From a bacterium (GTDB taxonomy: Bacteria > Patescibacteriota > Minisyncoccia > UBA6257 > JAGOQP01), in NCBI GenBank assembly GCA_021814445.1, contig JAKAIF010000003.1:1-44189 (forward strand): a stretch of DNA of 44,189 bases. The letters run 5' to 3'. The notes below the pieces were generated by a model. That model made no database searches. It was not told the origin of the DNA and worked only from the letters and a program-made list of their open reading frames with translations. The position numbers and the translations under genes are program-made. This document shows, one piece after another, positions 14,889 to 31,850 of the stretch. Within the stretch, counting starts at the first letter, position 1, and every line of letters begins with the position of its first letter.

Positions 14889-14932
14889 ACAAAGCCAAAG
14901 TTTTTGACGATCGTCAAAAACTTTGGCTTTGT
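14889..14932. repeat. 44-bp perfect palindromic repeat
   Basis: ACAAAGCCAAAGTTTTTGACGATCGTCAAAAACTTTGGCTTTGT. Confidence 0.95.
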
Positions 14933-14959
14933 GAATATGCACGGACATCAAAAACAAAA

Positions 14960-18838: not shown

Positions 18839-19753
18839 ATGAATATAAAAAACCTTATTCAAGACTATATTGATTACCTTGAGGTAGAAAAAAACCGTTC
18901 CCCCAAAACCGTACTGAATTATCGTCGCTATCTTGAAACATTTGTAAAAGATCAGAACATCAAAGACCTCACAGATATTACCCAACATACCGTAAAACAA
19001 TTTCGTCTTTCTCTGGCGCGCAAAAAATTAAATGCCGATGCCTATTTAAAGCGCAACACGCAAGCTTATTACAGTATTGCAATCCGCAATTTTCTCAAAT
19101 ACCTTATTAAACAAAATATTTCTGTTTCTGTGCTTCCCGAACAAATAGAACTCCCCAAAGTGCCTCAACGCCAAATAGAAATTATTGAATATGCTGATTT
19201 AGAAAGATTTCTCAGTGCCCCTCAAGGTGATTCCCTGCGCGTGCTTCGTGATCGCGCTATTTTAGAAACACTTTTTTCTACCGGACTCCGTGTTTCAGAA
19301 CTCTGTTCTCTCTCGCGGTATATAGACATAGAACGAGGAGAGCTCACTGTACGTGGAAAGGGAGCAAAACTTCGGGTTATATTTCTTTCTCCACGCGCGC
19401 AAACAGCCCTGCGCGCCTATCTTGATAAACGTGGGGACGCAGACGAAGCATTATTTATAAGCCTGAGTAAAGCAAAAAATCCAAAAGTGTTGGGACGCAT
19501 TATCCCCCGAACCATTCAACGACTCGTACGTTTCTATGCTACCAAAGCAGGCATATTAGGAAAAGTGGTTCCCCATCAACTCCGCCATCAATTTGCGACC
19601 GACCTTCTTTCTAATGGCGCAGATTTGCGATCGGTGCAAGAACTTCTTGGTCATGCAAATATTGCTACCACACAAGTGTATACTCACATCACTAACAAAC
19701 AACTCCGAGATATACACAAAGCGTTTCATGGCAAACGCAGAGGAACAAAATAA
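18839..19753 (+). CDS. XerC/XerD-family tyrosine recombinase
   Basis: SAM-like N-terminus; RDRAILETLFSTGLRVSEL, GKG, HQLRH, LLGH, TTQVY catalytic residues. Confidence 0.95.
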   Translation: MNIKNLIQDYIDYLEVEKNRSPKTVLNYRRYLETFVKDQNIKDLTDITQHTVKQFRLSLARKKLNADAYLKRNTQAYYSIAIRNFLKYLIKQNISVSVLPEQIELPKVPQRQIEIIEYADLERFLSAPQGDSLRVLRDRAILETLFSTGLRVSELCSLSRYIDIERGELTVRGKGAKLRVIFLSPRAQTALRAYLDKRGDADEALFISLSKAKNPKVLGRIIPRTIQRLVRFYATKAGILGKVVPHQLRHQFATDLLSNGADLRSVQELLGHANIATTQVYTHITNKQLRDIHKAFHGKRRGTK

Positions 19754-22219: not shown

Positions 22220-22301
22220 GGGGGCGTGGTGAAACTGGTATACACGCAGCGCTTAGGACGCTGTGCCGCAAGGTGTGAGAGTTCGAGTCTCTCCGCCCCC
22301 A
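22220..22301 (+). tRNA. tRNA-Leu (anticodon TAG)
   Basis: Acceptor GGGGGCG/CGCCCCC, anticodon arm CAGCG-CTTAGGA-CGCTG, long variable arm, GTTCGA T-loop. Confidence 0.96.
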
Positions 22302-22352
22302 CCCCGTAAAAAACGCGCACCGCCCAAAAGGCGGTGTTTACGTTTCACGGGG
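22302..22352. repeat. CCCCG...CGGGG palindromic element abutting the tRNA-Leu 3' end
   Basis: CCCCGT...ACGGGG termini with inner CACCGCC/GGCGGTG stem. Confidence 0.7.
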
Positions 22353-22428
22353 TTGGAACGTGATAAAATTGGAACAATTTTATTTTACGTTTCACTGCTT
22401 TATACTGTTATAAAATAATTTTACTACT

Positions 22429-22692
22429 ATGTTTTTTGTGTATGTTCTTCATAGTAAAAAAGATAATAAATTGTATATTGGATACTCGTCTAATTTGAAA
22501 GAGAGATTAAAGACTCATATTGATGGGCGAGTTATTTCAACAAAAAACAGACGACCACTCATTCTCATCTACTATGAGGCATATATACATATACAAGACG
22601 CAAAGAAGAGGGAGGACTTTCTTAAAAGTGGTTCGGGGCACAGATTTCTTAAAAATCAGCTGAATAATTATTTTATTTATAAAGATATATAA
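22429..22692 (+). CDS. Stand-alone small GIY-YIG endonuclease
   Basis: FVYVLHS...LYIGYS.NLKERL..H, YYEAY, A..RE..LKSG.G. Confidence 0.92.
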   Translation: MFFVYVLHSKKDNKLYIGYSSNLKERLKTHIDGRVISTKNRRPLILIYYEAYIHIQDAKKREDFLKSGSGHRFLKNQLNNYFIYKDI

Positions 22693-22755
22693 AATCACCT
22701 TATTTTAAGCCATTTCCTGCTTATTCCCCTCTTATCCACTCTTTCTGTATGGACG

Positions 22756-22859
22756 TTGACAAAATGCTATATTATATGCTATAATATAGTCAGTTACTTT
22801 GACAACTCTGTTTAATTATTCACCCAGAACATTCCGTGTTTTGGGTGAATAATTAAACA
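22756..22859 (+). promoter_or_regulatory. Consensus promoter with extended -10 and a 23-bp leader hairpin
   Basis: TTGACA 22756-22761, TGcTATAAT ending 22785; hairpin 22809-22859. Confidence 0.75.
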
Positions 22860-22893
22860 ATAAAATGTAAAATAAAAACGTACGGAGGTACAA

Positions 22894-24153
22894 ATGGGAA
22901 ACAAACAATCATCACTTCTTGACCGATATTTGGAATATCGAATTAGAATGAGGGAAATGAAAGAATCTAGAAGAATAGAGAGTGGAAAACTAGATCGAGA
23001 TAAGTACCTCAGAAAAATGGATTACAAAGAAACAAAAAGAAGAGAAAAACAGGCAAAGAAATCTGCAAAAAAACAGGCAAAAGAAACTAAAAAGTTAGTG
23101 AAAAAGAACAAACCGCGTAGAGTCTCTACGTCTACAAAATTTGTATTCTTTTTCATTCTGCCTGTAATATTTCTTATTCTTCTTGTCGGCACATCGTTCA
23201 TTTTCGGAGAACTCCAGCTTTTCATTCCTATAATGATTTCGCTGGGAATAGTAATAGTACTAACAGCTTCTGCATTAAAAGAAACCACCACATATCCCAA
23301 CTTTTTCATTAAAAGAATTCTCGGCGTATATGAACGTAAGGGATATAGTCTCCATACGTATGTTCTGGACAAGGAGTCTATAAAAAATGATGTGGAAATT
23401 CCCTACTACAAAGGAGGACTCGCTTTTGTGTGGTTTTGGGAAGAAATAGTTCCTGTTTTTGGAGGAGAAGAAAAAATAGTCAGAGAGATAAAAGATGTTC
23501 TCTATCCGAATGACGGGGTTAGTATTAGAACAAACCTTGGAATAGCAACAAGTTTTTCTCCAAACAATATGTCTGAAACTCTTCGTAAGTGTGGAAAAGT
23601 TGAAAAGGAGGTCACTAAAGAACATCTAAAAACTGTTTCCGACCTGTTTTTCAATATGGTAGAGCCTGAATTCAAGGCCACTATCAAAGACTTTGCTAGC
23701 ACCAACAAAAATTCAACATACGAAACCTTGATCAACTCCACAAAAACAATTGCAACAGATTTAAAAAATAATGTTGAGGCTCTCACCGATGTCCAGGGAA
23801 CTGTTAATGGCGCCCATCTAGTTGAAAAATTCGGAATAATTGTCTCCGATTACAATCCAGAGATGAGACCAGACGCTAAGGTTGAAGAAGCCAAAGAAGG
23901 AATAACAATAGCAAGAATGAATAAGGAAGCTGCGTTGAACGAAATAGCTGTAAAAAAAGATGTTCTTGTGGCAATAGGAACAGCAATAAAAGAAACAACC
24001 GGCGACGATCCTTCACAAGAAGCCATGGGAAATCTCGCCCTGTCCATGTTTGGAAATAGTAACAATGTTCTATTCATGGGAAACAGTGGTGGAAAAAATC
24101 CCGCCGTTGCAATTAATACAAATAACTCTAAGAAGGGAGGACCTAAACCATGA
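22894..24153 (+). CDS. Membrane protein, divergent SPFH/band-7-like
   Basis: Basic N-terminal helix, two TM helices, GGLAFVWFWEEI, FGIIV...RPDAKVEEA followed by an Ala/Glu helix; SD GGAGG. Confidence 0.55.
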   Translation: MGNKQSSLLDRYLEYRIRMREMKESRRIESGKLDRDKYLRKMDYKETKRREKQAKKSAKKQAKETKKLVKKNKPRRVSTSTKFVFFFILPVIFLILLVGTSFIFGELQLFIPIMISLGIVIVLTASALKETTTYPNFFIKRILGVYERKGYSLHTYVLDKESIKNDVEIPYYKGGLAFVWFWEEIVPVFGGEEKIVREIKDVLYPNDGVSIRTNLGIATSFSPNNMSETLRKCGKVEKEVTKEHLKTVSDLFFNMVEPEFKATIKDFASTNKNSTYETLINSTKTIATDLKNNVEALTDVQGTVNGAHLVEKFGIIVSDYNPEMRPDAKVEEAKEGITIARMNKEAALNEIAVKKDVLVAIGTAIKETTGDDPSQEAMGNLALSMFGNSNNVLFMGNSGGKNPAVAINTNNSKKGGPKP

Positions 24154-24665
24154 AAGGACTAAAAAAAACAATAACAATCATCGGCATAATTATCCTCCTT
24201 GTTGGGCTTTTCTTCCTCGGAAAGAAAGCTAATGAAAAAGACGGTGCAAACCGTCAGAATGATTACAAAGAACGGGTAGCGGCGAAACAGCAGAGCGAAC
24301 CACCAGCCCCACCTCCCCTAGGGAGTCTCTGGAATCCAATATCACTCAACAAAATCATTGGTAACTTCGGTGGAGTATATGTCATCAACCCCGGAGATTC
24401 AGTGTTTGTTGAGTTCGGAGATTTAAGATTCATCGGTTATACACTCAGGTATTCTGATCCTAGTGGCAAAAGCCGCATAACCAGAATAAATAAAGGAAGA
24501 ACATTAAAAGATCTGGAGGAGACTCCTGGAAGGAGAATCTCAAATTCAAAGATGGATGGCATAGATAAAATCTGTGTCAAGAATCTTGGCGAAAATGAGA
24601 TTCGTATTTACGCCTGGTACGGATACAAATCAGCCGCAAGATTTGCAGAACTCGGCGGCTACTAA
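24150..24665 (+). CDS. Membrane-anchored hypothetical protein
   Basis: ATGA overlap with the upstream gene, SD GGAGG, N-terminal TM helix, poly-Pro linker. Confidence 0.75.
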   Translation: MKGLKKTITIIGIIILLVGLFFLGKKANEKDGANRQNDYKERVAAKQQSEPPAPPPLGSLWNPISLNKIIGNFGGVYVINPGDSVFVEFGDLRFIGYTLRYSDPSGKSRITRINKGRTLKDLEETPGRRISNSKMDGIDKICVKNLGENEIRIYAWYGYKSAARFAELGGY

Positions 24666-24691
24666 TAAACAATTTACATTTTATACAAAAC

Positions 24692-24721
24692 AAAAACCCC
24701 GCTGGACGCGGGGCTTTTTTT
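24692..24721. terminator. Bidirectional intrinsic terminator
   Basis: AAAAACCCCGC-TGGAC-GCGGGGCTTTTTTT between convergent operons. Confidence 0.75.
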
Positions 24722-24738
24722 ATTTTTGACTCAATTTT

Positions 24739-25119
24739 TTAGTAGGTCAACTGGTTTGTAACTGAATTCTGTACAAATGACACAATTCCGTATGAAAGTA
24801 ATGCAACGGCGATTCCCACGATTGCATATAACAATTCACTCTTTGCAGTCTTTGTTTTTGTAGCATCTCCCTTACTGGTCACAAAATGGAACGCGGCAAG
24901 TAATATCATCGCGATAGCAACGATAAAGATGATGGTGTAGAACCATTTTACAACGGTCAATACAACACCCACCCATCCGGTCACGCTATTTGGTCCCGTC
25001 TGCGCGATTCCCACATCTTTTGGGGTTGGGATACTTCCTGGTCCGATAGCTAACACTGCTGGTGCAAACATCACTCCTAAAACGAGTGCCATTGCGATTG
25101 ATACAAATATTTTTTTCAT
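24739..25119 (-). CDS. VirB2/TrbC-like pilin family protein
   Basis: Signal peptide plus two hydrophobic helices joined by FVTSKGDATKTKTAK. Confidence 0.8.
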   Translation of the reverse strand: MKKIFVSIAMALVLGVMFAPAVLAIGPGSIPTPKDVGIAQTGPNSVTGWVGVVLTVVKWFYTIIFIVAIAMILLAAFHFVTSKGDATKTKTAKSELLYAIVGIAVALLSYGIVSFVQNSVTNQLTY

Positions 25120-25180
25120 ATGTTATTTAATAATTATATTTTTATTATATACCGTTTTATTTAAAAATCCAACTCCTGCC

Positions 25181-25645
25181 TTATGTGGTCGGTAATGGAG
25201 GCAATGTTGGTGTCGGCGTTGGTGTTGATGCCGGCGCTGAAGATTGTCCTCCCGTAACGAGAAAATCTTGTACCACCATACTTATTCCCGTTGCGACTAA
25301 AGCAACTGCGATTGCAACCACCGCCCATTTCAATTGTTTTTTTGCGGTCTCTACAAGCTTCTCATTACTTCCTCCTTGCACAAAGTTATACGCCGCCAAT
25401 AAAATCATCGCAACCGCCACAATAAAGAACAGTGTATACATCCATTTTATAATCACCACAATCAACCCAATGACTCCGGAACCCTGATCCCCCACAGTGG
25501 TGATGGGTGATTTCATATTTGGATCATTCTCAAATGGATTAATAACACTCGCTTGTGCATAACCAGGAGAAAGCAGTTGGGGAACATGTAATACCACCCC
25601 GAGACTTATTACAAGAAAGAATGAAATAAATAAAAGTTTTTTCAT
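25181..25645 (-). CDS. VirB2/TrbC-like pilin family protein with Pro/Thr tail
   Basis: Same architecture (GGSNEKLVETAKKQL); C-terminal TPTPTP. Confidence 0.8.
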   Translation of the reverse strand: MKKLLFISFFLVISLGVVLHVPQLLSPGYAQASVINPFENDPNMKSPITTVGDQGSGVIGLIVVIIKWMYTLFFIVAVAMILLAAYNFVQGGSNEKLVETAKKQLKWAVVAIAVALVATGISMVVQDFLVTGGQSSAPASTPTPTPTLPPLPTT

Positions 25646-25654
25646 AAAAATATA

Positions 25655-25996
25655 TTATTGAGTTCTTAAAATAGAATCCACAATAGATGAAACACCCGCT
25701 GATACTAATGCAATTGCAATAGCAATAACTGCGTTTTTGAGAGATGCAGTCGCTTTCTTCACCTCTGTTTCATTATCCTTTGCCATCAAATATTTATAGG
25801 CGGCGAGGAGAATAAATCCCACTGCGAGGATAAAGAAAACCCAAAATCCCCATTTGGTAATTCCCACAAGCCAATTTTCCACATCACCCGCACTCTTAAT
25901 AGGAGACGTGGGCGCTGGATTATTACCGAGCGCATAGGTGGCATGAGCCAACATAAACACCCCGACGGAAAAAAAGATTGTCTTTAAATACTTCAT
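25655..25996 (-). CDS. VirB2/TrbC-like pilin family protein
   Basis: Same architecture (YKYLMAKDNETEVKKA). Confidence 0.8.
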   Translation of the reverse strand: MKYLKTIFFSVGVFMLAHATYALGNNPAPTSPIKSAGDVENWLVGITKWGFWVFFILAVGFILLAAYKYLMAKDNETEVKKATASLKNAVIAIAIALVSAGVSSIVDSILRTQ

Positions 25997-26000
25997 ACAA

Positions 26001-26363
26001 TTATGTTAATGATAATATACTTTGTACCACATAGAGAACTCCGTCCGCCACAATAACCACTGCCGCTCCGAGTGCCGCGTGCTTCAATGTTTTTACTCCA
26101 TTCTCAAATTTTGTTGCATTATCTTGAGCCACCAACATCTGAAACCCTCCATAGAGCGCCATAATGGTAATTATCGGAATAGAAATCATGGTCAAATAGG
26201 AGATGATTTTACTCAAGAGATCAGAGAGTGTACCCGTACCATTGGGATCAAGTGGGTTGGTAAGCATGGTCACGTTTTGAGCTCCCACAGAGAGCGCGCC
26301 AAGAAATAAGAAGATAAATAGTATATATATACTCCGTGCTTTGTTTTTTATAGAAAAATACAT
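26001..26363 (-). CDS. VirB2/TrbC-like pilin family protein
   Basis: LTNPL motif; GGFQMLVAQDNATKFENG. Confidence 0.8.
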   Translation of the reverse strand: MYFSIKNKARSIYILFIFLFLGALSVGAQNVTMLTNPLDPNGTGTLSDLLSKIISYLTMISIPIITIMALYGGFQMLVAQDNATKFENGVKTLKHAALGAAVVIVADGVLYVVQSILSLT

Positions 26364-26383
26364 GTCTTTATTTAATACCTATA

Positions 26384-26749
26384 TTAATTTGTAGTCAAAC
26401 CTAAGAATGAAATAATTGTTTGCACCACAACCCACGCAAGCAATGCAAATCCAAATCCCCACACCACTCCTTTTATCATATCAAGGCCGCTCTTATATTT
26501 TGATTCATTCCCTGCGGCAGTGAGCATTTTAAATCCCCCAATAATAATGAGTATGGTGAGTATAGGAATAACAATAAACATCAATCCCTTATTGATAATG
26601 TTATTGATTGTGGGGATAACGTCATTATAGGTACACTCAGGTTGGTTGTATCCCCCACAGATAACCAGCCCCTCTTCTGTTTGCGCAAACACAGACAGAG
26701 CAGAAAGCCCCAAAAACAGCGCGGTGATACCAAATATAAATCGTTTCAT
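26384..26749 (-). CDS. VirB2/TrbC-like pilin family protein with N-terminal Cys pair
   Basis: GLVICG.....C; GGFKMLTAAGNESK. Confidence 0.8.
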   Translation of the reverse strand: MKRFIFGITALFLGLSALSVFAQTEEGLVICGGYNQPECTYNDVIPTINNIINKGLMFIVIPILTILIIIGGFKMLTAAGNESKYKSGLDMIKGVVWGFGFALLAWVVVQTIISFLGLTTN

Positions 26750-26795
26750 AAATATTATCTTTAGTATAGCAAATCTAAAAACGAGTCGCTAGTTT

Positions 26796-28124
26796 TTAGT
26801 TTCCATTAATTTCTTCCTGCGCCGCCCGCGCTCCCTGCGACAACGTTGTCTTTCCTGTTGCGACGTTATCAATCATGCGTCCGAGAACATCCTTCATTTT
26901 CTCATCATCTGGTCGTATCCATGTGCGCGCGATTAAAAAGCTTTTTAGAAACGCTCCATTCTCTCCATTTTTATCGGCATCTATCAAAGATAAAAGGGCG
27001 GGAAGTTTTTGTGTCGCTTGAACATACGCCTTACTTACGTCTGGAGTCATGGTTGCAAACCGTATAAAGTGCCATGCCACATATGCCTGTTTTGATTGAC
27101 GAGAAACCCCTAATCCCCAATAGGATGCTAACGTTTGAGCATCTTGTGGTCGAGCAGAAAGTTGTGGCACGGGAGCAACTCCAATCTGAATAAAATTATT
27201 TTTTGATTTAATTTCTGCAAGCGCGCTGTGAGTATCAATGAGCATACTCACCTTTTGCGCCGCGAATGCATCACGCGCAGAACCCATGGTGTCGCTCCAT
27301 GAATAATAGGGATTCACTGGATTCGCAAATTGTAAATAAAAAGAAGTTGCTTTCTGAGCTGGATCATCAAACACCACTCCGTTTGCAGTATTGAGCGTTG
27401 CCCCCGATTGCATCATAAGGAGTGGTAAAATATCATCAAAATTAGAAACGCCTCGCGCCGTTCCCAGAGCGATTGGAGATGCTTGTATATTTTTCTGCGC
27501 ATCCATTTCCCGCAGTGTAGGAATAAGCCCCACTACCTCATCCCATGTTTTTGGAGGATAAATTATCGCTTTCGTGTTGAAAATGTCTTTATTGTAGAGT
27601 AGTGCAAGCGCGTCAAAATGAAGTGGGAGCGCAAATACATATGCTTGATTGTCGCTTGCGGTGAGTACCATGTCTTTATATACCGCTTGCGGGAATGCCT
27701 GGCTCACCATAAGAGGAGACACCATGCCCACTGGGGCAGGTTGCAATTTTGCCGCATCTTTCTGAAGCCAAGAATTTTTCACCATAAAAATATCGGGGCC
27801 TTGTCCTTCGGCAAGCGCGGTCACTAATGCTTTTTCATATGCAGTCACAGAATCAAATTTTGTATATTGTACTGAAACACTTTTGGAAACTGGTTGGGCC
27901 TGATATGACTCAGAAATTCCCTTAAAAGCAGCCGCTTCATCCCCCACCCCCCATACCTGCAAGGTAATTTTTCCCGTGGGGAAATTCGGATCAAGTGATT
28001 GACTTGATTTAAAAATAGGAATAATTCCCGTAAGACCCAGTATCACCAACAGAATGAGTATTCCTACGACCCCAATGATAGTAAGTTGTTGTTTATTCAA
28101 ACCGCTAAAAAAATCTGCATTCAT
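26796..28124 (-). CDS. Extracellular solute-binding protein (sugar ABC family 1-like), TM-anchored
   Basis: ITLQVWG, ALAEGQGPDIF, LLYNKDIF, PPKTWDE, AWHFIRF. Start ATG 28124. Confidence 0.85.
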   Translation of the reverse strand: MNADFFSGLNKQQLTIIGVVGILILLVILGLTGIIPIFKSSQSLDPNFPTGKITLQVWGVGDEAAAFKGISESYQAQPVSKSVSVQYTKFDSVTAYEKALVTALAEGQGPDIFMVKNSWLQKDAAKLQPAPVGMVSPLMVSQAFPQAVYKDMVLTASDNQAYVFALPLHFDALALLYNKDIFNTKAIIYPPKTWDEVVGLIPTLREMDAQKNIQASPIALGTARGVSNFDDILPLLMMQSGATLNTANGVVFDDPAQKATSFYLQFANPVNPYYSWSDTMGSARDAFAAQKVSMLIDTHSALAEIKSKNNFIQIGVAPVPQLSARPQDAQTLASYWGLGVSRQSKQAYVAWHFIRFATMTPDVSKAYVQATQKLPALLSLIDADKNGENGAFLKSFLIARTWIRPDDEKMKDVLGRMIDNVATGKTTLSQGARAAQEEINGN

Positions 28125-28400
28125 ACCCAGTATATCAACAACGATATGTGCAACGCACACCCATTGTTATGATTAAAAATAATTTTAATTTCTGTCTGTT
28201 AGTATACTCGATTACATACGTGATTAGTAATTTAAATCGTTGTTGTATTACCGGGCATACCCAGTAACATTAATTCTCTTTATTATATTCTATATACTAT
28301 ATATATGGAATAGGCGCCGCATCTCTCATTTGAATTTCGCGGTATTCTGAGTTACAGTAATGTGGTTATCGTCCGTAGTAAGACTAAAAATTTATATCAC

Positions 28401-30251
28401 ATGCGTATTTTATTTAAATCATTTATCAAAAACATCCTTATCGTAATACTCGCCTTTGTGGGTATTATGATTGTGTTTGCGTCTTTATTTTCTTCCTCAA
28501 CCGCTCCAAGAGATATCACCTTAAACGAGCTTGCGAATAAAATAAACTCACAAGAAGTAACTCATATCACCGTTGAAGAAAACACAGTCACCGCAACATT
28601 TAAAGATGGGACCGAGGGAACAACAAAAAAAGAAACCGAAGCGGGACTCTCTGAAACACTCAAAAACTATGGTGTGGAGGCAAAAACACTGCAACAAATT
28701 CCCCTTGAGATGAAGGATCCTTCAGGATGGAAACTTTGGATGAATATTCTTCTTCCTTCGCTCCTTCCTATTATTCTTATTGGCGTGTTCATTTGGTTTA
28801 CCTTCCGCCAAGCGCGCGCGGGCGCATCACAAGCTATGAACTTTGGGCGTTCAAATCTAAAATTATTCTCTCCTTTTAAAGACAAGGTTACGTTTGCCGA
28901 TGTGGCAGGACTCAAGGAAGTAAAACAAGAATTAATTGAAGTCGTGGACTTTTTAAAGAATCCCAAAAAATACGCAGACGCGGGAGCTCAAATTCCTCGG
29001 GGTGTTCTTTTGCTCGGTATGCCAGGAACAGGAAAAACACTCTTGGCGCGCGCCGTTGCAGGAGAAGCGGGCGTTCCTTTCTTTCATATCTCTGCTTCTG
29101 AATTTGTGGAGATGTTCGTGGGGGTGGGAGCTTCCCGTACCCGCGATGCATTCCTCACCGCAAAGAAAGCCTCTCCGTCAATTTTATTTATTGATGAAAT
29201 AGATGCGATTGGACGCGAGCGTGGTGCGGGTGTGGGAGGAGGTCACGATGAGCGTGAACAAACCCTCAACCAGATTCTCGTAGAAATGGATGGGTTTGAA
29301 AAAGAATCACGCGTGATTGTGCTTGCCGCAACAAATCGTCCCGACATTTTAGATCCCGCACTTCTCCGCCCTGGACGTTTTGATCGTCGCGTTACCCTTG
29401 ATCTTCCCGACATTAATGACCGTGAGGCGATCCTCCGTATTCACGGACGCAATAAGTCACTCGCAAAAGATGTTGACTACAGACAAATTGCCGTGCGCAC
29501 ACCTGGTTTTTCTGGCGCCGATCTTGCCAACCTCATGAATGAAGCCGCCATCCTTGCCGCGCGAGAAAATAAAACAGTTATAGAACAATCACATTTATAT
29601 GAAGCGATTGAAAAAGTGCTTCTTGGACCTGAACGCCGATCACGCACTCTCTCCACACAAGAAAAAGAAATCACCGCATATCACGAAGCGGGACATGCGC
29701 TTGTTGCCGCATCATTAAAAGACGCCGATCCCGTGCATAAGATTTCTATTATCGCGCGCGGACAAGCGGGCGGATATACCCTCAAACTTCCTATTGAAGA
29801 TAGATATCTACACACACGTAAACAATTTCTCGCTGACCTTGCGATGACCCTGGGTGGATATGCAAGCGAAGAAAATACGTTTAAAGATATCAGCACCGGA
29901 GCTTCAAATGATCTAGCGGTTGCCTCAGAGGTTGCGCGCCGTATGGTCACGCGATATGGGATGAGTAAATTTGGTCCCATTACGTTTGGAAAAACACAAG
30001 AATTAATTTTCTTAGGAAAAGAAATTTCTACAGAACGAAATTATTCCGACAAGGTTGCTTCTGAGATTGATGCTGAAGTAGAGCACCTACTCGCTTCCGC
30101 GCACAAAATGGCAAAAGATATTCTGCATAAACACAAAGAAGCACTTGATGCACTCGCGCAAAAATTAATGACCGAAGAAACAATTGAAAAAGAATCATTT
30201 GATGCGCTTATAGAAGAATTCAAAATAAAACCAACAACGTTTTCACTATAA
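28401..30251 (+). CDS. ftsH: ATP-dependent zinc metalloprotease FtsH
   Basis: Two TM helices, GMPGTGKT Walker [22 protein letters not shown]. Start ATG 28401. Confidence 0.98.
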
Positions 30252-30263
30252 ATCATCTCTCAC

Positions 30264-30309
30264 AAATAAAATAAAACACTCTATATATATAGAGTGTTTT
30301 ATTTTATTT
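30264..30309. terminator. 46-bp perfect AT-rich palindrome after ftsH (probable terminator)
   Basis: AAATAAAATAAAACACTCTATAT|ATATAGAGTGTTTTATTTTATTT. Confidence 0.7.
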
Positions 30310-30362
30310 AGTTGCGTTGTAGATAGATAATATTTCCGCGGCAGAAAGAGCACGATACAAAG

Positions 30363-30404
30363 CAAAGCCAAAGTTTTTGACGATCGTCAAAAACTTTGGC
30401 TTTG
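30363..30404. repeat. Second full copy (42 bp) of the palindromic repeat
   Basis: Identical to 14890-14931. Confidence 0.95.
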
Positions 30405-30574
30405 TGTATAGGCGCGGATATCAGAATATAAAAAACAATAATCCATTAATCCATCATGGAAGAATTATTGTTCTAACACAGAATACTTGGACTAGTTCAT
30501 GCCCCATATCAACACTTCGTGTGATACGGGGAGTGCCTACTCCACTACTAATTGTGGACGATACAGGATTTTCA

Positions 30575-30675
30575 CCCCGTTAGATAATTTACAAGGTGTT
30601 AATTACCTAATATGTGGAGTTATTATATTCTTGTCTATAGCTATAGACAAGAACAAATTAAATATCTTTACGGGG
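30575..30675. repeat. MITE-like CCCCG...CGGGG element
   Basis: Termini CCCCGTTAGATA / TATCTTTACGGGG; internal perfect 26-bp palindrome 30628-30653. Confidence 0.65.
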
Positions 30676-30752
30676 CGTGCCTGTGACCTTTGGTGTAAAC
30701 GGATAAAACGTCCCTATGGACGTTTTATCCTCTAACCAGCAAACAAAATTTG

Positions 30753-30826
30753 TGCACCCTGTAGGATTCGAACCTACGACCCCTTCAGTGTAAATGAAGT
30801 GCTCTAACCAGCTGAGCTAAGGGTGC
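30753..30826 (-). tRNA. tRNA-Val (anticodon TAC)
   Basis: Reverse complement GCACCCTTAGCTCAG...CTTCA-TTTACAC-TGAAG...GGTTCGAATCC...GGGTGCA. Confidence 0.96.
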
Positions 30827-30883
30827 TGAATCTATGTGTGATAGATATATCAAAATACTATCCAAAACACAAGTTACAAATGC

Positions 30884-31492
30884 TTATTTATGTTCTCCAG
30901 TTCCCCCATTCAGTTTTGCAGAAAATATCTTATCAACAATTTTTCTAATGTAGCGTTCAAATACCATAAGAAGAATGAGAATGCCCGCCACACCCAATGC
31001 AATAACCTCAAGTCTCTGTTTAAAGATGTTTGTTTGATCGGCAAACATATATCCAATACTCATATATAATGAAGGCCACAAGAGCGCGGTTATGAACGAA
31101 TACCGCATCACTTTTTTGAGAGGAATTTTTACATACCCCGTTGAGATCAAAATAATGCGGTTAAAGTTCCACGCAAATTTTGAGAAAACTACCACCAGTC
31201 CTGCAAAAGGGCGGTACCGTTCCATAAATCCAGCAAATTTATCCAAATCAAAATAAAAGTATTTTTTCTTTTCGCGTTTTGCAAGCCATTCCCCCAATCG
31301 CCAAAAAATCATATCGTGAATCAAGGTGGCAACAAAAGCAATAAAGAATAAAGTTGAAAAACTCAGATATCTCCCCCGACTCAACGCCCCAAATAATAGG
31401 AGGGAAACGTCTCCCTCAAGAAACATCATAAGAAATGCAACTCCGTATACGAGCAACTCATGGTTGTGACCAAACGCGATAAGCCAATCCAT
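30884..31492 (-). CDS. DedA/VTT family membrane protein
   Basis: FLEGD, D...F..G helix, V..SKF.....R....I..G, ALLW......GY. Confidence 0.8.
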   Translation of the reverse strand: MDWLIAFGHNHELLVYGVAFLMMFLEGDVSLLLFGALSRGRYLSFSTLFFIAFVATLIHDMIFWRLGEWLAKREKKKYFYFDLDKFAGFMERYRPFAGLVVVFSKFAWNFNRIILISTGYVKIPLKKVMRYSFITALLWPSLYMSIGYMFADQTNIFKQRLEVIALGVAGILILLMVFERYIRKIVDKIFSAKLNGGTGEHK

Positions 31493-31621
31493 AAATGGTT
31501 AGATATTAGTGGTTAGTAGATAGTATCTAGTATACTATACAACAAACATAAAAAGAAAACGTGAAAAAGGTAAGCCTTGTTGAATTTTTCATAAAATACG
31601 CTAGTGTTATAAAATAATTAT

Positions 31622-31662
31622 GCGCCCATAGCTCCCCGAAATATACTTCGTATATCACGGGG
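31622..31662 (+). repeat. Duplicated tRNA-Ile 5' end fused to a CCCCG...CGGGG hairpin
   Basis: GCGCCCATAGCTC (tRNA nt 1-13) running into CCCCGAAATATAC-TTCG-TATATCACGGGG. Confidence 0.8.
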
Positions 31663-31725
31663 CAAGATATGAATAGACAACGATAGCGCTACGAGTGTAT
31701 TTTAAAAACATTTAAAGATAGATAT

Positions 31726-31799
31726 GCGCCCATAGCTCAGTTGGTTAGAGCATCGAGCTTATACCTCGAGGGTCCTAGGTTCGAGTCCTAGTGGGCGCA
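31726..31799 (+). tRNA. tRNA-Ile (anticodon TAT/UAU)
   Basis: Acceptor GCGCCCA/TGGGCGC, anticodon arm TCGAG-CTTATAC-CTCGA, discriminator A. Confidence 0.93.
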
Positions 31800-31850
31800 C
31801 GAAGTAATAATTCAAAAACTCCTGGAGTTTATTCTAAAAGAAAAAAATCT

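Follow-up and report, generated by a model that had tools for sequence, protein, structure and literature searches.

The 44,189-nt stretch of DNA analysed here (the window; contig JAKAIF010000003.1, or C5, of assembly GCA_021814445.1) belongs to a genome of 694,876 bp in 46 contigs with 39% G+C and 33 transfer RNA (tRNA) genes, which is 94.8% complete and whose related metagenome-assembled genome records are titled Paceibacteria or Patescibacteria. The window carries three tRNA genes, all of which were also called by Rfam, and each has hairpin-forming DNA beside it. Directly behind tRNA-Leu lies a small gene for a GIY-YIG nuclease, and this nuclease-and-hairpin unit is the subject of the present analysis (Table 1). 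It was compared with 19 other genomes of the same family, a small-genome lineage; G001, G002 and G003 are congeners, while G006 belongs to a different genus.

Table 1. Features of the window at the three tRNA loci; z-scores are for folding as DNA against 200 shuffles each
Feature	Position	Strand	Remark
tRNA-Leu(UAG), intact	22220..22303	+	cassette begins right at 3′ end
Hairpin 1, left end of GIY-YIG cassette	22302..22352	+	z -3.8
Hairpin 2, AT-rich	22353..22395	+	z -4.3
Promoter-like site ahead of nuclease open reading frame (ORF)	22391..22419	+	9/12 consensus matches
87-aa single-domain GIY-YIG nuclease gene	22429..22692	+	Pfam PF01541
30-nt hairpin, resembles ATAC-type hairpins	30502..30531	.	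z -2.5
Apparent leftover 3′ end of older tRNA-Val: 3′ part of T loop, T stem, acceptor strand	30554..30574	-	
101-nt hairpin element, apparently in T loop of leftover tRNA-Val	30575..30675	.	z -4.9
Apparent leftover tRNA-Val, anticodon loop to 5′ T stem	30676..30703	-	colinear with tRNA-Val 28-58
tRNA-Val(UAC), current allele	30752..30826	-	differing acceptor stem
Promoter-like site, conserved in congeners, now ahead of tRNA-Ile fragment	31586..31615	+	
Displaced tRNA-Ile 5′ copy, 15 nt	31620..31634	+	2 upstream nt + tRNA positions 1-13
ATAC-type hairpin at D-arm break	31634..31662	+	z -3.5; not terminator-like
Remainder of 89-nt insert, without ORF	31663..31723	+	absent in G001, G002
tRNA-Ile(UAU), intact	31726..31800	+	

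The 87-aa protein matched the PF01541 profile with 52.2 bits (cut-off 22.6) over residues 1-69, and no second domain was found. Y5, Y16, R26, H30 and E62 are all present, in columns conserved in 69-72 of the 72 family members; the catalytic roles of the individual residues we take to be those assigned in I-TevI. The Rfam scan of the window matched only the three tRNAs, that is, no intron and no family for the hairpins, and it placed the end of tRNA-Leu at 22301. The first-pass annotation, which had been made from the letters of the sequence, described a GIY-YIG gene with neither a DNA-binding extension nor a surrounding intron, and the Pfam and Rfam results bear this out. Hairpin 1 begins, as had been noted, on the base right after the discriminator base of tRNA-Leu. 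Together with hairpin 2 and the nuclease gene it forms an insert of approximately 400 bp directly after the tRNA, in which both hairpins lie upstream of the gene and none downstream.

The locus order of proton pyrophosphatase gene, tRNA-Leu(tag) and conserved promoter of the next gene occurs in three congeners. In G001 the tRNA is followed by 125 nt of other hairpins and in G002 by a terminator and a GC-rich element ending in a copy of the tRNA 3′-end; the nuclease gene is absent from both, and the homology of the window to both genomes breaks just past the discriminator base. The nearest relative of the 87-aa protein, encoded in G006, is 70% identical and is its sister in a quick tree of the nuclease proteins with a support of 98 (28 of the 69 forks of this tree are unresolved), and its gene lies directly after the transfer-messenger RNA (tmRNA) gene, as called by both aragorn and Rfam. 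The two cassettes share 78% column identity. Conservation extends over the ORF, hairpin 2 and, in hairpin 1, the outer stem; the interior of hairpin 1 differs between them and is self-complementary in both. Because the conserved stems and the ORF align between the tRNA-Leu and the tmRNA cassettes, the hairpins belong to the nuclease-carrying unit, which, as judged from this alignment, has reached two different stable-RNA genes, in each case at the 3′ end. Alleles free of the insert do exist in relatives: the tRNA-Leu cassette is missing from G001 and G002, and the tRNA-Ile site is empty in both. The hairpin-plus-nuclease unit comes and goes at stable-RNA genes. A tmRNA-like 3′ copy considered at the right end of the window cassette was rejected, the matching stretch being present also in G001, which has no cassette.

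All five hairpins of the window fold better than their shuffles (z -2.5 to -4.9), in line with the claim that each of the three tRNA genes has such an element. The termini proposed for them, CCCC(G) and CGGGG, hold with the reservation that the hairpin at 30502 starts with CCCCA instead of CCCCG. What had to be abandoned is the idea that CCCCG...CGGGG defines a multi-copy family of the REP type: a blastn search of the 695-kb genome with four window hairpins gave zero further copies, and the pattern itself is common genome-wide. CCCCG-N(4-120)-CGGGG had 45 matches in the genome, 41 of which fold closed, and 26 of the latter are non-coding by the crude coding mask used for these counts. Many of these 26 are short (15-20 nt) and flanked by T runs, and are ordinary terminators. 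Enrichment of CCCCG hairpins beside tRNA genes, proposed as a check of the idea, was nevertheless found, as 6 of the 26 are no farther than 150 nt from a tRNA or tmRNA gene, zones that make up 8% of the non-coding DNA (about threefold excess, binomial p 0.015). A narrower family is real: ATAC-type hairpins occur at 31634-31662, once on contig C40 and twice in G003. The C40 hairpin, which sits in a decayed tRNA-Thr copy, shows 4 differences in 27 nt from that of the window, two of which are a compensating pair. Another one, on C29, lies within the T loop of a 3′ copy of tRNA-Gly and was assigned by eye, outside the pattern matches; with this exception, the ATAC-type hairpins stand right after the D-stem of a leftover tRNA copy. 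The flank of the 30502-30531 hairpin is D-arm-like by eye only. A GC stem-loop followed by a T run, as in a terminator, is present on both strands in the core of hairpin 1 (22317-22337) and in none of the hairpins at 30502-30531, 30575-30675 and 31634-31662.

At tRNA-Ile, the congeners G001 and G002 have the promoter and then directly the tRNA, with the 15 nt occurring once, whereas here an insert of 89 nt, led by a hairpin, lies in between, and 31620-31634 is identical to 31724-31738. The duplicate of the tRNA-Ile 5′ end seen earlier is real, but it is 15 nt long including two upstream nucleotides, not 13 nt. The hairpin is not a terminator, because it lacks a T run and precedes the tRNA; a weak promoter-like site is found within the insert at 31674-31703. 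The same junction exists with a nuclease ORF on contig C9, where a 15-nt copy of the tRNA-Ile(gat) 5′-end is followed by a CCCCG...CGGGG hairpin, further hairpins, a GIY-YIG ORF and the intact tRNA. The filled tRNA-Ile allele was present in the contigs of four sequencing runs from one study; joints skipping either insert were absent among the matches listed for these contigs, which drop rare variants and are therefore silent on empty alleles.

The spacer between ftsH and tRNA-Val measures approximately 490 nt, compared with about 60 nt in G002, where it consists of a single CCCCG...CGGGG hairpin with A and T runs at its flanks. Read on the tRNA strand, the stretch before the 101-nt hairpin aligns to tRNA-Val positions 28-58, a match equalled by 4 of 500 shuffles, and the stretch after it to positions 58-75, which 76 of 500 shuffles equalled and which is not significant alone; the second stretch is colinear with the first and its T stem matches. 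The leftover acceptor strand differs from that of the current tRNA-Val and complements that of the leftover 5′ copy of tRNA-Val in G003. An older tRNA-Val allele thus seems to have left a remnant whose T loop is interrupted by the 101-nt hairpin. Duplicated tRNA fragments had been read as scars of earlier events, and this is supported insofar as leftovers of replacement occur at tRNA-Val and at loci of the relatives: a working tRNA is left beside the partial copy, and tRNA alleles are replaced. An 11-nt stretch at one end of the 101-nt hairpin recurs beside the leftover tRNA-Val of G003. In that genome (L031, G003:C1:49614-52652) the segment of tRNA-Val, a membrane-protein gene and tRNA-Ile is inverted relative to the window, with hairpin-bearing leftover tRNA copies at both ends and with acceptor stems that differ from those of the window in both tRNAs. 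Because of the shared 11-nt stretch and the inverted segment, an inversion junction may be part of the history of the tRNA-Val spacer.

The genome has ten PF01541 matches, nine of which are small stand-alone genes for proteins of 79-111 aa; four of the nine abut a tRNA gene (p 0.006 under a gene-neighbour null) and one lies inside the 23S ribosomal RNA (rRNA) gene. Partial tRNA copies are frequent as well: BLAST detected a same-strand 3′ partial copy 20-221 nt downstream of 17 of the 33 tRNAs and an upstream 5′ copy at four, which concerns 19 tRNAs in all. In the 19 family genomes, 63 small GIY-YIG ORFs were collected by profile after matches with internal stops and one short match at a contig end had been excluded. 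Thirty abut a same-strand tRNA or tmRNA gene (23 directly upstream of a tRNA at up to 102 nt, six directly downstream at up to 195 nt and one after tmRNA), one is 72 nt away from a tRNA on the opposite strand, and 32 have no stable-RNA gene within 200 nt. An exact partial copy (at least 10 nt) of the respective tRNA was found nearby in 20 of the 23 upstream cases, and in most of these copies, as seen by eye, a GC-rich palindrome interrupts one of the loops (D, anticodon or T). The nuclease clades track tRNA identity, five tRNA-Ser(gct) cases forming one clade and three tRNA-Cys cases another, and three sister pairs of nucleases located at different RNA genes, including L087/L098 and L050a/L093, have common hairpin modules.

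Of 69 GIY-YIG ORFs, 24 have a GC hairpin in the 150 nt upstream, compared with 58 of 513 control ORFs (p 2.5e-6), which, along with the partial copies at 20 of 23 loci, supports the earlier remark that hairpins, tRNA fragments and small GIY-YIG genes occur together. The similarity of the upstream DNA grows with protein identity (4/15, 5/117 and 16/1083 pairs in bands of falling identity), as measured on the 50 usable cassettes out of 72. Relatives of the window protein in a species-genome collection gave a similar picture: at nine of 11 loci a tRNA on the same strand stands no more than 80 nt from the ORF, at another the distance is 354 nt, and the last is truncated by the end of its contig. 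The records of these loci are titled Roizmanbacteria, Paceibacteria, Bacteroidota and Planctomycetes. All 20 family genomes have PF01541 matches, one to 10 per genome and 92 in total with those of this genome counted in; five of the 92 contain internal stops, as expected of decaying selfish nuclease genes.

REP elements pair with RAYT (HUH/Y1) transposases, and it was to such systems that the window had been likened. The likeness is that of a nuclease gene accompanied by hairpin-forming palindromes; the catalytic fold is different and the window hairpins are not multi-copy. With no RAYT/Y1 transposase (PF01797, zero matches in the 94.8% complete genome) and no multi-copy window hairpin, the designation as a REP/RAYT-like system had to be dropped. 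A closer counterpart is the Ssn family, represented by SsnA of Neisseria meningitidis and the NTS/SRM hairpin repeats (Chenal et al. 2025, PMC11893778). According to the main text of that paper, Ssn enzymes bind to a hairpin formed by single-stranded DNA and cleave next to it, and the authors note a likeness to insertion sequences and to REP/RAYT; the statement that hairpin-linked nucleases are HUH and not GIY-YIG enzymes is consequently outdated. As described there, Ssn enzymes are single-domain GIY-YIG proteins of about 90 aa (87 aa here) without a DNA-binding domain and have hairpins beside the gene. They differ in that the hairpins of the window are single-copy and the unit is located in or next to tRNA and tmRNA genes, accompanied by partial duplicates of tRNAs. 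The published degenerate SRM motif had zero matches in the genome (20 Markov controls average 1.15), and the word tRNA does not occur in the main text of the Ssn paper. The window protein is no more than a possible member of Ssn. By profile, the nearest relatives of solved structure for these proteins are the UPF0213 proteins BH0048 (1ZG2, E 2e-21) and EF2693 (1YWL, 3e-17) and the nuclease domain of SLX1 (2e-8). BH0048 and EF2693 are proteins without an assigned function, and SLX1 differs as a structure-specific nuclease needing a partner, with no tRNA link reported in the available part of its description (PMC7017083).

SegB of phage T4 is a free-standing GIY-YIG homing endonuclease in a tRNA gene cluster with a reported 27-bp site (PMC2330249, PMC13096335). 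By its abstract, the site includes a conserved T-psi-C stem-loop motif, and the enzyme drives the inheritance of itself and of the neighbouring tRNA genes, related genomes being without SegB (PMC2330249). The cassettes described here resemble it as GIY-YIG genes among tRNA genes whose presence at a given locus varies between close relatives, and they differ in being chromosomal and bacterial; the abstract describes neither split or duplicated tRNAs nor hairpin plugs (PMC2330249). A separate DNA-binding domain after the catalytic one, a trait of homing endonucleases, is absent from the 87-aa protein, in which Pfam covers residues 1-69. SegB is presumably longer than the cassette proteins. Integrating elements also leave partial tRNA gene copies that adjoin intact tRNA genes (bioRxiv 10.1101/2022.07.05.498093); in the cassettes there is no integrase, both 5′ and 3′ pieces occur, the breaks are in loops and hairpins are inserted. 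No site-specific integrase linked to tRNA repeats was found in the genome, which has only an Xer-like tyrosine recombinase and one serine recombinase. A bare GIY-YIG nuclease with hairpins (Ssn, 2025) and a tRNA-directed GIY-YIG homing enzyme (SegB) are known already. The literature search found no paper on GIY-YIG cassettes that split or duplicate bacterial tRNA genes, although the supplement of PMC11893778 might list tRNA-adjacent homologues. Nor did any paper listed by this search describe a cassette lodged in a tRNA gene that brings a spare part of the tRNA and leaves a copy plugged by a hairpin.

Considering these results, we regard it as reasonably probable that stable-RNA genes harbour a family of miniature selfish cassettes, of which the window contains a complete copy and two footprints without an ORF. 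Cassettes of the same anatomy recur across genomes, and their hairpin modules move with the nuclease clade. A complete cassette would comprise a single-domain GIY-YIG gene for a protein of about 80-110 aa, preceded by at least one stable hairpin and located in or beside a tRNA gene, and the family would reside in tRNA, tmRNA and 23S rRNA genes. The cassette would bring along a tRNA, either whole or as a replacement piece, and in this way an intact tRNA would stay beside a leftover partial copy, the latter usually being plugged by a GC-rich hairpin in its D, anticodon or T loop. In the proposed mechanism, the nuclease would break DNA in or next to a conserved tRNA gene, perhaps at its own hairpin in single-stranded DNA, if it acts like Ssn, or perhaps at a conserved tRNA arm, if it acts like SegB, and recombination would then copy the cassette in. 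We infer the role of the nuclease as the starter of the insertion event, which SegB and Ssn as precedents make reasonable. The insertion points observed are the three loops of the cloverleaf, and these would fit the recognition of folded single-stranded DNA.

Several observations weigh against this interpretation. No 3′ copy of tRNA-Leu flanks the window cassette. The tree group holding the window protein has 13 members, 11 of which have no tRNA within 200 nt while the twelfth, that of G006, follows tmRNA, and tRNA-Leu could therefore be just one of many sites where such cassettes land. The core of hairpin 1 looks like a terminator, and the 87-aa protein, a predicted nuclease, appears to be a domain without a DNA-binding part. 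A tblastn search of the ORF-less spacers with nine nuclease proteins revealed no remnant (best E 0.13), and comparison of the tRNA-Ile insert, taken as 95 nt, with 150 genomes of the order gave short AT-rich matches and the C40 relative of its hairpin, and no ORF-bearing homologue. Since neither a remnant nor a homologue was found, it is the anatomy of the junction that leads us to infer that the tRNA-Ile insert is a decayed or non-autonomous, ORF-less derivative. Because the insert could also be lost precisely through its 15-nt direct repeat, the empty sites are compatible with either gain or loss. Insertions confined to loops can likewise result from selection that removes insertions from the working tRNA, and the genomes, being of one family, are not independent samples.

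Other explanations have to be set against this evidence. The hairpins could be independent palindromic elements, moved otherwise or arising by replication errors, that pile up in harmless dead tRNA copies and spacers, with the nuclease genes merely sharing these havens. Several unrelated palindrome families do coexist in these genomes: a 42-nt palindrome has no nuclease tie among the copies inspected, the copy number of a CCTGCC...GGCAGG palindrome ranges over 0-22 among 20 genomes, and ATAC-type hairpins are found in leftover tRNAs that have no nuclease gene in their vicinity. We consider this explanation unlikely because sister nucleases that stand at different RNA genes, and in different genera, have hairpin modules in common, and because hairpins are enriched upstream of nuclease ORFs; moreover, two of the eight CCTGCC palindromes of this genome lie 80-90 nt upstream of nuclease ORFs and four more at leftover tRNA copies or, at C18:11702, in a tRNA-flanking spacer. 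Alternatively, the nuclease might be a domesticated, non-selfish host enzyme of the Ssn kind that trims single-stranded DNA at hairpins and controls recombination at tRNA loci. The presence of PF01541 matches in 20 of 20 family genomes agrees with this, as do the properties of the Ssn enzymes given in the main text of PMC11893778 (a single GIY-YIG domain, 94 aa, hairpin repeats at the flanks, cutting of single-stranded DNA only and modulation of transformation). A host enzyme would fit poorly with the presence or absence of the cassette at the same locus among congeners, with numbers that range from 1 to 10 per genome, with internal stops in 5 of 92 matches, with overwritten tRNA alleles and with the lack of SRM motif matches in the genome, all of which make it quite unlikely.

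The simplest view, that the hairpins are mere terminators or processing signals of tRNA transcripts and that the nuclease stands beside tRNA-Leu by coincidence, is favoured by the core of hairpin 1, by the A and T runs flanking the G002 hairpin between ftsH and tRNA-Val and by the many other short, T-flanked CCCCG hairpins in non-coding DNA. Hairpin 1 probably does end the tRNA-Leu transcript as well, the insert having split the tRNA from its native terminator. As a general account, this view is largely refuted and highly improbable, because it does not explain a tRNA-Ile hairpin that lies upstream of its tRNA and lacks a T run, a 101-nt hairpin apparently within the T loop of a leftover tRNA, the conservation of hairpins 1 and 2 with the nuclease gene behind tmRNA in another genus, or the 30 of 63 nuclease genes of the relatives that abut a stable-RNA gene. 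It is hardly conceivable that the partial tRNA copies are attachment-site scars of deleted islands driven by integrases, even if the 17 of 33 tRNAs with same-strand 3′ copies 20-221 nt downstream look like integrase attachment repeats: the sole tyrosine recombinase (18839-19753) is Xer-like, the one serine recombinase is encoded on another contig, the inserts measure only 90-400 bp, and many of the duplicates are 5′ pieces that have their breaks in the D loop.

The selfish-cassette interpretation can be extended to a more general proposal, which we put forward tentatively and with some doubt. A bare GIY-YIG domain and its own hairpin may constitute a complete self-spreading element that recognises folded single-stranded DNA, be it the hairpin or the cloverleaf loops, cuts it and is copied in with a replacement tRNA segment, whereby tRNA, tmRNA and rRNA genes of several phyla would be overwritten by foreign alleles. 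If so, the essential single-copy tRNA genes of reduced genomes would be hot spots where cassettes land, leave scars and swap in foreign alleles, and a spare part would be a third way, besides introns and inteins, for a selfish nuclease gene to spare the host gene. Hairpin-specific single-domain GIY-YIG nucleases, which are of interest as tools for single-stranded DNA, would also gain many natural pairs of nuclease and hairpin whose target context can be read. In practical work, assemblies of such genomes break at the partial tRNA copies and hairpins, and tRNA annotation can be led astray by them.

Some further features of the window and of the genome are worth recording. A perfect TTGACA-18-TATAAT promoter with a long inverted repeat (22756-22860), possibly a leader or operator, precedes the gene at 22894 and is kept in G001 and G002. 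The 46-nt perfect AT-rich palindrome at 30264-30309, right after ftsH, has a similar counterpart in G001 and is probably the ftsH terminator. The perfect 42-nt palindrome at 30363-30404, found also at 14889-14950 and 5-25, has roughly 15 copies in the genome and occupies at least 12 places in G002; it represents a separate REP-like repeat family without visible link to a nuclease gene. An 18-nt CCTGCC...GGCAGG palindrome on contig C6 (2469-2486) apparently lies inside a protein-coding frame. The tRNA-Ile with anticodon TAT (31726-31800), which we take to be an uncommon bacterial way of reading AUA, coexists with tRNA-Ile(gat) elsewhere in the genome.

Many tRNAs (about a dozen, counted by eye) are followed by GC-rich elements of approximately 100-170 nt, which fall into at least two sequence types, on contigs C3, C9, C18, C19, C22, C28, C29, C35 and C43 (e.g., L001:4195-4340). 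These elements are bracketed by an inverted copy of the tRNA T-arm and a direct copy of the tRNA 3′-end, and they differ between congeners at the tRNA-Leu and tRNA-Ile loci; those on four other contigs matched no Rfam family. The GIY-YIG ORF in the 23S rRNA gene (L059, contig C16:175-510) encodes 111 aa, and positions 1611-2478 of the Rfam model are spread over 1881 nt at this locus. At L074 (G016:C8:63943-66080), two near-identical GIY-YIG ORFs stand in tandem, each after a partial tRNA-Glu copy, and the intact tRNA-Glu comes last.

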